DNA of 64,000 nt, from the NCBI GenBank assembly GCA_963778585.1, contig CAVZUU010000006.1, positions 660 through 64,659 on the forward strand, read 5' to 3'. Below are positions 43,221 to 45,903 of the stretch, piece after piece. The position numbers and the translations under genes are program-made. A model generated the notes under the pieces. That model had not been told where the DNA came from and searched no databases. It worked only from the letters and a program-made list of their open reading frames with translations. This DNA comes from an uncultured Gammaproteobacteria bacterium (GTDB lineage Bacteria; Pseudomonadota; Gammaproteobacteria; Steroidobacterales; Steroidobacteraceae). The first letter of the stretch is position 1; the number at the start of each line of letters is the position of its first letter.

Positions 43221-43754
43221 ATGAAGGCTATCCAGAAGGGCTTCACGCTCATCGAACTGATGATCGTGGTGGCCATTATCGGCATCCTGGCCGCGATCGC
43301 GATCCCCGCGTACCAGGACTATACGATTCGCGCGCAGGTCTCTGAAGGCTTGACGCTCGCGTCGGACGTCAAAGCGGGTGTCGCTGAGTACCTGGCGCAG
43401 ACCGGCACCTGGCCGGCGACCCTGGTCGAAGCGGGTCTCGGGTCGGCTGCTGTTCTGGGCGACAAGGCGGGCCGCTACGTTGAATCGATTGACGTCTCGA
43501 ACGGTACAATCATCATCGTGTACGGCAAGGACGCCAACTCCAAGGTCCAGGACGGGATTCTGTCGATCCAGCCTTGGGTTAACGAAAACGGCGACGTCGT
43601 GTGGCAGTGCGGCAAAGCCAACGCACCTGCCAATGCGTATGCCACACCGGATGGCGTCACCGCTGCTGAAACAGCGTCTGATACGGGTACGACCGACCTC
43701 AGCGACAAGCACATGCCGGCTTCATGCCGCAGTGGCTTCGGCGGTTCGGCCTAA
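43221..43754 (+). CDS. pilA: type IVa major pilin
   Basis: MKAIQKG|FTLIELMIVVAIIGILAAIAIPAYQDY is a class III leader with an N-terminal helix. AGGAG lies 8 nt upstream. Two C-terminal Cys residues are 38 residues apart. Confidence 0.93.
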   Translation: MKAIQKGFTLIELMIVVAIIGILAAIAIPAYQDYTIRAQVSEGLTLASDVKAGVAEYLAQTGTWPATLVEAGLGSAAVLGDKAGRYVESIDVSNGTIIIVYGKDANSKVQDGILSIQPWVNENGDVVWQCGKANAPANAYATPDGVTAAETASDTGTTDLSDKHMPASCRSGFGGSA

Positions 43755-43786
43755 GACCGAATGGCCCGGCAATTGAGCCGGACCGG

Positions 43787-43818
43787 CAAGGCCCCTGCAT
43801 GCAGGGGCCTTGTTTTTT
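43787..43818 (+). terminator. rho-independent terminator after pilA
   Basis: CAAGGCCCCTGCATGCAGGGGCCTTG is a perfect GC-rich hairpin, followed by TTTTTT. Confidence 0.85.
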
Positions 43819-43845
43819 AGCCTCTGCAAATTCCGCTCGCGAATC

Positions 43846-45903
43846 ATGAGCAACGCTCCCAATGCCGCGCGCGGCGGTTGGTCGGGCGTCACCCTCAGCC
43901 TGACACTCGCCCTGGCCTGGCTCGCGGGCTGTCTCTGGTGGGTGGTACGCGAAATCCATTTCCTGCTCGCCAGCGACCAGGTCACTGCGTCCGTCAGCAT
44001 CGAAAAAGCGTTCGGCTCGGTGCTGGCCTGGCAGCTCGCGAAATTCGGCGCTGCCCTCGTGCTGATTCATGCACTGCTAGGGCTTCTCGCCTTTGCACTC
44101 GCGCGCATGTCGGAGGCCGCGTTTCCGCGGCGCGTGGTCGCACGTCGCGGATGGCTGATCGCCGGTTGGCTTGCGGTACTTTGCGGCCTCGTGATGGCCG
44201 TCAATACGACCTGGTATCCGGGGTCGATATTCGCGGGCGAGGAATCGGGCTGGCGGCGGCTAATCCTCGGGCTGCACCCGATCACCCACGTCATTGCGCT
44301 GCTTTCATTGCTGATCCTCTGGTTGGGGATCCGCGCCTCGAGGGGGCGGCCGCTTCGCGTCACGCTTGCGCCGGGAATGGCCGCGATTGCCTTTCTGGCG
44401 CTCGTCGTGTGGAACGCGCGACCGCTGAGTCTCGGTGCCGCAGTTCCAGTGACCGCAGAATCCCGGCCGCACATCGTGATCCTCGGCATCGACTCGCTTC
44501 GGAATGACCTGACGATTCCCCGCCGGGGTGAAGCGCACACACCGAATATCGACACGTTTCTCAAGAGGGCGCGCCGCTTTGACGACTCCATTACACCCCT
44601 GGCGCGGACCTACGGCTCCTGGATCTCGATCCTGACGGGCCGCCACCCGACCCGGACCAATGCAAGGGTCAACTTGATGCCGCGGAGCCTCGTGAACCCG
44701 GGAACGACATTCCCCGATGTGCTTCGGGAATACGGCTATCGTTCGACCTACGCGACCGACGAGGTGCGCTTCGCGAACATCGACCGCTCATTCGGCTTCG
44801 ACGACCTGATCACGCCGCCGGTCGGCGCAATTGATTTTCTGCTCGGATATGCGGGCGACCTGCCGCTCGTGAACCTCGTGGCCTCGACGGCTGCCGGAGC
44901 ATGGCTGTTTCCCTCGAATCACGCGAATCGGGCGGCCTGCGTCACCTACGAGCCGCGGCAATTCGTGCGGCGGCTCGAGCGTGAACTGTCCGTTCGCGGA
45001 CCTTCCCTGCTCGCGATCCACCTCACGCTCGCGCACTGGCCCTATGCCTGGGCCGGCCGGCCGATTCCCACCGTGCCCGATGCCTATCGCGACGCTTACG
45101 GCGAGGCGGTCGCGGAAGTTGATCGGCAGTTCCAGGAGGTCATGAAACTCCTGGCCGACAAGCACGTGCTCGACAATGCGATCGTCGTCTTGCTGTCGGA
45201 TCATGGCGACGCGCTCGGAGCCGAGAATGATTCGATGCTGCGCGGCACCGGGACCAGTCGCGAGATCTGGGACTCGCTCTGGGGTCATGGCACAAGCGTA
45301 ATGAGTCCCAGCCAGTACCAGGTGCTTCTCGCGATGCGAGCCTTCGGCCGCGCGCGATTGCCCGGGCCCGAACGGGATTACGGCTGGCCGGTTTCGCTCG
45401 AGGACTTGAGACCGACGCTCGAGCAGATGGTGACCGGCAAGGCGCCCTCGGATGTCGATGGAATTTCGCTCCTGCCCTACCTTGAGGATCCCTCGCGCGC
45501 CACTGAACTCGAGTCCCGCATCCGCTTCACCGAAACCGATTTCAGTACCCCCGACGTCCTTGCCGGCCGCTACGAGGCCGCAGGGATCATCGACGAGGCC
45601 GCGGTTTACTACGAGCTCGACTATGGCTCGGGCTGGGTGCAGTTTCGCGAGGATCGCCTGCCCGAACTGCTCGCACACAAGCAGCGGGCGGCGATTTCCT
45701 CGACCTCCCTGCTGGCGTCGATTCCGGGGCCCGCGGATGCGGGTCCCCGTTACCTCCTCACGGACCGCCGCAAGCCCGCGCCAAGGGCACTGAAAGGACG
45801 GCCAGACCCTGCTCAAGATCCGGAAGCCAGTCGTCTCTGGAATGCCCTTAAGGCCCGCTATCCGGGTGAACTGCCGGTCGATCCCGAACTACCCCGAATG
45901 TGA
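43846..45903 (+). CDS. membrane-anchored alkaline-phosphatase-superfamily (sulfatase/phosphoform-transferase-like) enzyme located in the pilus locus
   Basis: 685 aa from the ATG at 43846. About 7 N-terminal TM helices, then HIVILGIDSLRND, TPLARTYGSWISILTG, LTLAHWPY and VLLSDHGDALG. Confidence 0.7.
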   Translation: MSNAPNAARGGWSGVTLSLTLALAWLAGCLWWVVREIHFLLASDQVTASVSIEKAFGSVLAWQLAKFGAALVLIHALLGLLAFALARMSEAAFPRRVVARRGWLIAGWLAVLCGLVMAVNTTWYPGSIFAGEESGWRRLILGLHPITHVIALLSLLILWLGIRASRGRPLRVTLAPGMAAIAFLALVVWNARPLSLGAAVPVTAESRPHIVILGIDSLRNDLTIPRRGEAHTPNIDTFLKRARRFDDSITPLARTYGSWISILTGRHPTRTNARVNLMPRSLVNPGTTFPDVLREYGYRSTYATDEVRFANIDRSFGFDDLITPPVGAIDFLLGYAGDLPLVNLVASTAAGAWLFPSNHANRAACVTYEPRQFVRRLERELSVRGPSLLAIHLTLAHWPYAWAGRPIPTVPDAYRDAYGEAVAEVDRQFQEVMKLLADKHVLDNAIVVLLSDHGDALGAENDSMLRGTGTSREIWDSLWGHGTSVMSPSQYQVLLAMRAFGRARLPGPERDYGWPVSLEDLRPTLEQMVTGKAPSDVDGISLLPYLEDPSRATELESRIRFTETDFSTPDVLAGRYEAAGIIDEAAVYYELDYGSGWVQFREDRLPELLAHKQRAAISSTSLLASIPGPADAGPRYLLTDRRKPAPRALKGRPDPAQDPEASRLWNALKARYPGELPVDPELPRM

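Follow-up and report, generated by a model that had tools for sequence, protein, structure and literature searches.

A membrane-anchored sulfatase-like protein encoded beside pilA in uncultured Steroidobacteraceae, a candidate pilin phospho-form transferase

Post-translational modifications of pilins alter the surface chemistry, aggregation, phage susceptibility and antibody recognition of type IV pili and, to our knowledge, modification of pilins with phospho-forms is described essentially from Neisseria, where the transferases PptA and PptB are encoded away from the pilin gene pilE. Here we describe a gene without a name, called X below (43846-45903, + strand), that lies directly downstream of pilA in a 64,000-nucleotide stretch of a contig (the window) from an uncultured soil bacterium of the gammaproteobacterial family Steroidobacteraceae, and that encodes a 685-residue membrane protein with a Pfam Sulfatase domain. 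The reading that we tentatively favor is that X is a pilin-dedicated phospho-head-group transferase, similar in its working to PptA and PptB and of independent lineage, that would place a head group on the pilin protein itself.

PptA, a member of the EptA/EptB family, is like X a polytopic inner-membrane protein with a periplasmic domain of the alkaline-phosphatase (AP) superfamily (Pfam Sulfatase), and the pilin on which it acts belongs to the class of the pilin proposed as the substrate of X, with Ser68 retained in the PilA of the window. The PptA/EptA family and X have in common a Thr nucleophile and five transmembrane (TM) helices joined to a periplasmic domain, which amounts to a shared working principle and not to membership; X differs in having no match to the EptA-family model, no EptA-type N-terminal Pfam domain, and sulfatases as its fold neighbors, and, whereas pptA is not adjacent to pilE, X is hard-wired to pilA. 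PptB is a membrane-bound head-group transferase of the same superfamily that resembles LtaS and OpgB, whereas X is sulfatase-like, and its gene, unlike X, is unlinked to the pilin gene. More broadly, LtaS, OpgB (MdoB), and EptC are established to combine five TM helices with an extracytoplasmic AP domain, a Thr nucleophile, and lipid head-group donors, as proposed for X, and EptC also modifies a protein, FlgG; however, no specific sequence or fold affinity between X and these enzymes was found.

The gene arrangement has its closest counterpart in Pseudomonas aeruginosa, in which TfpO/PilO and TfpW, like X, are polytopic membrane enzymes encoded directly after the major pilin gene. Both are pilin glycosyltransferases that are specific to a pilin allele and diverge with it, and X shares with this class an adjacency to pilA that is kept across lineages; in fold and chemistry, however, TfpO (an O-antigen-ligase-like oligosaccharyltransferase) and TfpW (a glycosyltransferase-C-type arabinosyltransferase) are unrelated to X. 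By sequence and fold, the nearest relatives of X are instead the S1 formylglycine sulfatases, choline sulfatase, and phosphonate monoester hydrolases, with which the nucleophile position, the L-T-G that follows it, and the D...DH ligands align. The S1 enzymes are soluble hydrolases, whereas X has a Thr nucleophile, an N-terminal module of five TM helices, and an extra C-terminal domain. A full-text literature search combining pilin, pilA/pilB, and sulfatase returned no paper tying a sulfatase-like protein to pilins.

The periplasmic catalytic domain of X (44461-45525, + strand) was delimited by Pfam, PDB alignment, conservation, and Foldseek. PF00884 (Sulfatase) matched residues 208-461 at 64.5 bits against a cut-off of 25 (E 1.3e-17), and on the strength of this model match, together with the metal-binding Asp, the nucleophile, and the Asp-His pair, X is assigned to the AP superfamily. 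Alignment placed the active-site codons at 44491-44493 (D216), 44605-44610 (R254-T255), 45034-45036 (H397), 45199-45204 (D452-H453), and 45286-45288 (H481), all on the + strand. Across 124 full-length family representatives with 33-58% identity to X, D216, R219, R362, H397, D452, and H453 were invariant (124/124), the position of T255 was occupied by Thr in 123 and by Ser in one, and R254 and H481 were kept in 123 and 121, respectively; conservation of the active site also held in alignments of 40 and 63 sequences. R558, E563, and P627 were conserved toward the C-terminus, where residues ~561-685, encoded together with the stop codon at 45526-45903 (+ strand), form a beta-rich domain according to the secondary structure of the AlphaFold 2 (AF2) model.

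When X was aligned to the sulfatase 9bau, the segment L-A-R-T-Y-G-S-W-I-S-I-L-T-G fell over A-A-T-S-S-P-S-R-Y-S-L-L-T-G, with Thr255 at the position of the formylglycine. The formylglycine signature C/S-x-P-x-R is absent from X, which reads T-Y-G-S-W in the window, and the motif of the family is R-T-[FY]-P-[AS]-W-x-x-I-L-T-G. Thr is not convertible to formylglycine; rather, a Thr nucleophile marks the phosphoryl-transfer branches of the AP superfamily (EptA, LtaS, NPP), in which Thr and Ser nucleophiles form covalent phospho-enzyme intermediates. The presence of Thr255 where sulfatases bear formylglycine thus makes X probably a phosphoryl-transfer enzyme and not a sulfatase, and we hold with good confidence that X is active in this chemistry.

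No NCBIfam model reached its cut-off against X, the best being choline sulfatase (58 bits) and arylsulfatase (57 bits); the EptA-type model NF028537 scored 11.4 bits against a cut-off of 500 (E 0.085), and YejM-type and EptA-type models overall scored 11-14 bits, in each case over the SDHG segment only. A sequence search of the PDB retrieved sulfatase chains, with E values down to 8e-11, and every one of the 50 best Foldseek matches in the PDB (E 5e-16 to 6e-13, with target TM-scores reaching 0.64) was an S1 sulfatase, a choline sulfatase, or a phosphonate monoester hydrolase, such that X has the S1 sulfatase fold, including its C-terminal subdomain, without the C/S-x-P-x-R signature. The Pfam scan of X (E <= 0.1) contained no EptA_B_N, and neither LtaS nor OpgB turned up as a model in the NCBIfam results or as a chain in the PDB sequence search or the 50 best Foldseek matches. 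Membership of X in the EptA/PptA/LtaS families was rejected on these NCBIfam scores, Pfam, and Foldseek results.

The N-terminal membrane module (residues 1-205; 43846-44460, + strand) was delimited by hydropathy, charge, AF2 helices, and conservation. Five TM helices were placed at residues ~14-34, 58-85, 100-120, 139-158, and 172-190 by hydropathy and two AlphaFold models, and the positively charged loops after TM2 and TM4 predict, by the positive-inside rule, an N-terminus inside the cell and a large periplasmic C-terminal part. The invariant residues of the module (H75, W108, N120, S127, and G142) cluster at or close to the ends of TM2-TM4 that face the periplasm, a placement that would fit a substrate at the membrane surface. 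The full-length AF2 model had a mean predicted local distance difference test (pLDDT) score of 75 and a predicted TM-score of 0.72, and the module modeled alone had a pLDDT of 79; against PDB structures the latter had no fold match (best E 2.8), and it may be a membrane fold absent from solved structures; at deep divergence, homology to the EptA membrane domain is neither supported nor contradicted by this result. A preliminary description of this locus had given X about seven TM helices, a count that the present analysis lowers to five, and a catalytic domain of the sulfatase or phosphoethanolamine-transferase type, of which the Pfam Sulfatase and AP-superfamily assignment stands and the likeness to PptA, EptA, or LtaS finds no counterpart in sequence or fold. 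The catalytic Asp and His residues and the nucleophilic Thr, whose absence it had considered as a possible argument against its reading, are present and essentially invariant.

A HMMER scan of 1.84 billion representatives recovered 728 X-family proteins at E <= 1e-30 (50% clustering), full-length and down to ~33% identity. The near relatives came from Steroidobacteraceae and unclassified gammaproteobacterial metagenome-assembled genomes (MAGs), mostly carried no source name, and where named were called "sulfatase-like hydrolase/transferase", "arylsulfatase A-like enzyme", or "hypothetical protein"; a second, sister clade, that of homologs with 36-41% identity, was also large and comprised 347 hits, one of them a named Steroidobacteraceae. 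The order pilSR-pilA-X-pilBCD was found in every Steroidobacteraceae locus with enough flanking sequence on both sides, except L050, and the synteny of X with pilA that the preliminary description had proposed to survey in relatives thus holds across the lineage and extends to homologs of 36-41% identity. Within the window-type clade, the whole nadE-sucDC-pilSR-pilA-X-pilBCD-coaE-zapD-yacG neighborhood is vertically conserved, and synteny within this clade alone is therefore weak evidence. The 36-41%-identity homologs, however, still have a Neisseria-type pilA as their neighbor, and the arrangement takes at least five forms: pilA, X, and pilB in this order (L058, L064, and, with the contig ending within X, L098); X, pilA, and pilB (L090, and L067, in which the contig ends after pilA); divergent pilA and X (L066, L069, L071, L096, L140, L141); an X cassette reversed between pilS and pilR (L088); and duplicated X (L065, L071). 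The only constant partner of X across these arrangements was pilA. That X stays next to pilA despite changes of order and orientation argues for a functional link to the pilin, and a functional link of X to the pilus is considered very probable.

The pilA-linked clade sits, by sequence comparison, inside a broader X family. In L057 (5527-9838), a member of 35% identity has no pilin in its vicinity and is flanked by groES, which is divergent, and by a DsbD gene in the same orientation, a context showing that the broader family is not confined to pilus loci; this arrangement was not found in the other distant loci, and the non-pilin clade had no shared context. Elsewhere, members of 27-33% identity occur within ~2 kb of pilin genes that are not of the Neisseria type (L082:4476-9104, L083, L085, and L097:26-3011), and in L097 two tandem pilin-like genes are directly upstream of the distant X homolog.

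The proposed substrate is the product of pilA (43221-43754, + strand), a prepilin of 177 residues (170 mature) with Pfam Pilin (E 3.5e-16) and N_methyl (E 7.5e-10) domains, a leader reading MKAIQKG/FTLIELM, and a C-terminal end of WQC, 38 residues, and CRSGFGGSA, exactly as the preliminary description had quoted it. Its closest solved relatives are Neisseria PilE structures (meningococcal 5kua, gonococcal 2hi2 and 1ay2; E 2e-33 to 4e-32), to which PilA aligns from end to end, both Cys residues and the K-H-[LM]-P-[SA]-[ST]-C-R end coinciding. With the G/FTLIE leader, the D-region, and the KHxPxxCR end all in place, PilA is classed by sequence as a Neisseria-class type IVa major pilin. The D-region extends from Cys123 to Cys162 of the mature protein (43608-43727, + strand; sequence and pilin comparison). 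Its 38-residue loop is long relative to Pseudomonas-type pilins and exceeds by ~9 residues the hypervariable loop of gonococcal PilE, which has 29, and Ser and Thr make up 9 of the 38 positions (24%, against 14% in PilA as a whole), a modest enrichment. Among 45 pilins adjoining X homologs, the loop had a median of 36 residues (range 28-43) and a median Ser/Thr fraction of 0.26, and by this comparison the PilA loop is long but normal among pilins of its kind; the earlier characterization of the loop as unusually long and hydroxyl-rich therefore describes its length and, modestly, its composition, and not a departure from other X-linked pilins. The first half of the loop is hypervariable, whereas its end is conserved (T-T-D-L-S-D-K-H-M-P-A-S-C-R in the window, T-[TD]-x-L-x-x-K-[HY]-[ML]-P across X-linked pilins).

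Following the last Cys, a Gly-rich tail, CR-[ST/A]-GFGG-[SAN] (43728-43751 in the window), is conserved in most window-type pilins and missing in the sister clade, where the pilins stop at or just past CR; by analogy with C-terminal sites in other pilins, this tail is a possible modification site. In the alpha-beta loop, Ser68 of mature PilA (codon at 43443-43445, + strand), in the context A-G-L-G-S, aligns with Ser68 of gonococcal PilE (A-G-V-A-S) and is a candidate acceptor. The gonococcal serine 68 bears phosphoethanolamine (PE) or phosphocholine (PC) in a PptA-dependent manner (PMC4010543), and Ser69 of meningococcal PilE, one residue off the Ser68 of the window, bears glycerol-3-phosphate added by the phosphoglycerol transferase PptB (PMC10948894).

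What the sequence data establish for X is its domain architecture, a topology prediction, the conserved catalytic residues, and an adjacency to pilA that persists through rearrangements; that it is a transferase and not a hydrolase, and with which donor, acceptor, and site, we infer. X would be an inner-membrane enzyme of the AP superfamily with its active site on the periplasmic side, the five TM helices keeping the catalytic domain at the outer surface of the inner membrane, within reach of both a lipid donor and pilin that is membrane-anchored and not yet assembled. Thr255, activated by a metal ion that D216, D452, and H453 coordinate, would attack the phosphodiester of a phospholipid head group to give a phospho-Thr intermediate carrying the head group; this group (PE, phosphoglycerol, or PC) would then move onto a PilA hydroxyl at a stage when the pilin remains in the inner membrane. 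The hydroxyl could be that of Ser68, of the conserved Thr-Thr before K-H-M-P-A-S-C-R, or of the Ser in the CRSGFGGSA tail. The pilin gene would be driven by a PilR/sigma-54 promoter, with much less X made, either by read-through or by transcription from a weak separate promoter. All characterized AP-superfamily members with a polytopic membrane tether known to us (EptA/EptB/EptC/PptA, LtaS, OpgB, and BcsG) take a phospho-alcohol head group off a membrane phospholipid and attach it to an acceptor outside the cytoplasm. A more specific proposal, which is possible and which we advance with reserve, is that X represents a third, independently recruited AP lineage of pilin phospho-form transferases, built on a sulfatase scaffold by a Cys-to-Thr switch and fusion to a novel five-TM module and hard-wired to pilA, with sister lineages adding a second AP-like enzyme and an S-adenosylmethionine (SAM)-dependent methyltransferase. 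A variant in which X takes glycans linked to undecaprenyl pyrophosphate and puts glycan-1-phosphate on the pilin is very improbable; we know of no description of protein phosphoglycosylation of that kind for bacterial pili.

In 18 non-redundant intact loci, the mean pairwise protein distance was 0.38 for X, 0.27 for PilA, 0.18 for PilS, 0.13 for PilR, 0.115 for PilC, and 0.09 for PilB, which makes X the fastest-evolving gene among those compared, and after the PilB/C/R/S distances were regressed out, the residual divergence of X and PilA remained correlated (partial r 0.345, Mantel permutation p about 0.001). This co-divergence fits an enzyme tracking a variable pilin substrate but is supportive only, because co-recombination of adjacent genes would give the same signal. 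Several further observations weigh against X as a pilin-dedicated transferase. Its catalytic domain is nearest, in both sequence and fold, to soluble hydrolases and not to EptA or LtaS, and in the PDB fold search its TM domain had no similarity to the membrane domains of either. Ser68 occurs in most X-linked pilins but is absent from some, so that it was rejected as a universal acceptor and remains a candidate only. Homologs of X at <=35% identity mostly have no pilin nearby; occurrence apart from pilus loci, which the preliminary description had named as a finding that would count against a pilin-modifying role, is thus real for these remote paralogs, although it does not extend to the pilA-linked clade. 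Even in the near clade, L050 (2536-9448) has three sulfatase-like paralogs (two X-like and convergent, one a weaker hit) and a YidC-like gene adjoining pilR-pilS, with no pilA within the 12-kb locus. Finally, a cultured host was not found among the named hits and cluster records examined, and the genome scan gave only MAGs.

Alternative readings share much of this evidence. The head group, PE or phosphoglycerol, might be added by X to a glycan (a pilin-linked O-glycan, lipopolysaccharide, capsule, or a periplasmic glucan), as known for EptC, Lpt3/Lpt6, OpgB, and BcsG, and most characterized membrane transferases of the AP superfamily do act on sugars. Islands of glycan-synthesis genes follow X in two sister-clade loci, with a family 2 glycosyltransferase (GT2), a Wzx flippase, Bac_transf, and Alg13/14-like genes in L140 and GT2, GtrA, LPG_synthase_TM, and a short-chain dehydrogenase/reductase (SDR) with FAD_binding_4 in L141; these islands mean that the acceptor could be a pilin-linked or other envelope glycan, and an Acyl_transf_3 gene lies between X and pilB on the P0200 contig. 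Nevertheless, a glycan acceptor is judged unlikely, given that the pilSR-pilA-X-pilBCD cluster of the window lineage is without a glycosylation gene, that pilA is the sole constant partner across arrangements, and that X co-diverges with PilA. X could alternatively be a membrane-tethered periplasmic hydrolase (a phosphodiesterase, phosphonate monoesterase, or sulfatase) that removes a modification from the pilin or envelope or scavenges esters, as would befit nearest relatives that are all hydrolases, whether ranked by NCBIfam score (choline sulfatase, 58 bits), PDB sequence match, or Foldseek. Canonical sulfatase chemistry is excluded by the family-wide replacement of C/S-x-P-x-R with T-x-P-x-W, scavenging hydrolases are usually soluble and not wired to pilA, and the conserved five-TM module with its invariant residues at the periplasmic interface suggests a membrane-embedded substrate, all of which renders hydrolysis quite unlikely to be the function of X.

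The link to pilA itself admits other explanations. Were the adjacency merely historical, X would be a general envelope enzyme inherited within the pil cluster of Steroidobacteraceae, in keeping with the vertical conservation of the whole neighborhood, which leaves within-clade synteny with little weight, and with distant paralogs in other settings such as that between groES and DsbD in L057. Such inheritance would not readily account for X remaining beside pilA through at least five rearrangements, including an inversion, a move upstream of pilA, and an insertion between pilS and pilR, for the 27-33%-identity members that are again near other pilin types, or for a co-divergence with PilA beyond the background of the cluster, and we consider it highly unlikely. 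X might also act without catalysis, helping its cognate pilin as a chaperone or in assembly, as has been proposed for TfpY/TfpZ-type proteins; it lies directly after pilA, like the accessory genes in Pseudomonas, evolves fast, and tracks the divergence of the pilin. A complete catalytic constellation kept over 124 diverged representatives is unexpected in a pseudo-enzyme, however, and pseudo-enzymes of the YejM/PbgA type lose such residues, so that the chance of a purely non-catalytic role appears extremely slim.

If X is indeed a pilin phospho-form transferase, decoration of type IV pili with phospho-forms would extend to abundant uncultured soil Gammaproteobacteria, a large uncharacterized family (728 representatives) would gain a function, and X would clearly illustrate how exchange of the nucleophile turned a sulfatase scaffold to phosphoryl transfer. 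As a tight pair, pilA and X also constitute a compact two-gene system for heterologous reconstitution.

In the sister clade (L069:4698-10297, L088:4884-10334, and also L065 and L066), X is followed by a conserved two-gene cassette, always beside a Neisseria-type pilA. The first gene encodes a second AP-like protein of ~520-550 residues with 5-6 TM helices, a weak Sulfatase match, and D/T/H/DH motifs kept, and the second encodes a cytoplasmic protein of ~470 residues with a C-terminal class-I SAM methyltransferase domain. This cassette could be a pathway for head-group methylation (PE to PC), a type of pathway that is still an open matter for Neisseria (PMC4010543). Glycan islands are found in other sister-clade loci: in L140 (11228-20070), GT2, Wzx-type flippase, Bac_transf, Alg14, and Glyco_tran_28_C genes lie directly after X, between pilA and pilR, and in L141 (11354-20208), in which pilR was not seen within the locus, X is followed by GT2 genes, GtrA, two methyltransferases, LPG_synthase_TM, and an SDR and FAD_binding_4 pair resembling DprE1/DprE2. 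On the P0200 contig (genes at 146-6549), the X homolog (38% identity) precedes the Acyl_transf_3 gene, after which come pilB-pilC. The flanks of pilA appear to be a hot spot for surface-modification genes.

The genes of the type IV pilus cluster of the window are all on the + strand, with pilSR upstream of pilA-X and pilBCD downstream, and with X as a 685-residue product between pilA and pilB, in agreement with the preliminary description. Upstream are pilS (40061-41686), which forms a two-component system with pilR and whose orthologs (in L001 and others) carry Pfam 6TM_PilS/HisKA/HATPase_c, and pilR (41693-43027), a sigma-54 activator with Response_reg/Sigma54_activat/HTH_8 in its orthologs. 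Downstream are pilB (46044-47786; assembly ATPase, orthologs with MshEN/T2SSE), pilC (47837-49060; platform protein, T2SSF), and pilD (49075-49956; prepilin peptidase, Peptidase_A24), each called from its open reading frame, followed by coaE, zapD, and yacG homologs. The start of X is the ATG at 43846, which is favored by the homologs. A putative sigma-54-type promoter element, TGGCAT-N5-TTGCT (GG-N10-GC; 43146-43161, + strand), read by eye from the sequence, lies ~60 nt 5' of the pilA start and is consistent with the PilR sigma-54 activator encoded upstream.

The strong terminator noted earlier after pilA was recovered as an intrinsic terminator at 43785-43818 (+ strand) with a 13-bp G+C-rich stem, a CAUG loop, and a run of six U residues. 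The 96-nt pilA-X intergenic sequence folded at -38.7 kcal/mol (z -2.7), and the hairpin was clear in RNA folding, although a simple terminator scanner missed it, probably because of the rules it applies to loops and tails. Six relatives (L001, L002, L004, L005, L016, and L064) have an equivalent hairpin after pilA, one of them distant and with a different stem sequence. Given so strong a terminator, X is probably expressed far below pilA, with a low ratio of enzyme to pilin. Each of the sequencing runs checked for pilA-X read-through transcripts contained <=26% of the sampled words.

In six of the MAG loci (L012, L028, L041, L045, L054, and L056, 'MFD' isolate assemblies), many pil genes and X are split into frame-shifted pieces, for which assembly indel errors are a more likely explanation than real pseudogenes. 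Part of the 43100-46000 segment of the window was found mostly in sequencing runs of people, a resemblance that likely stems from the coding region for the pilin N-terminus, which is near-identical in Neisseria and other human-associated bacteria.

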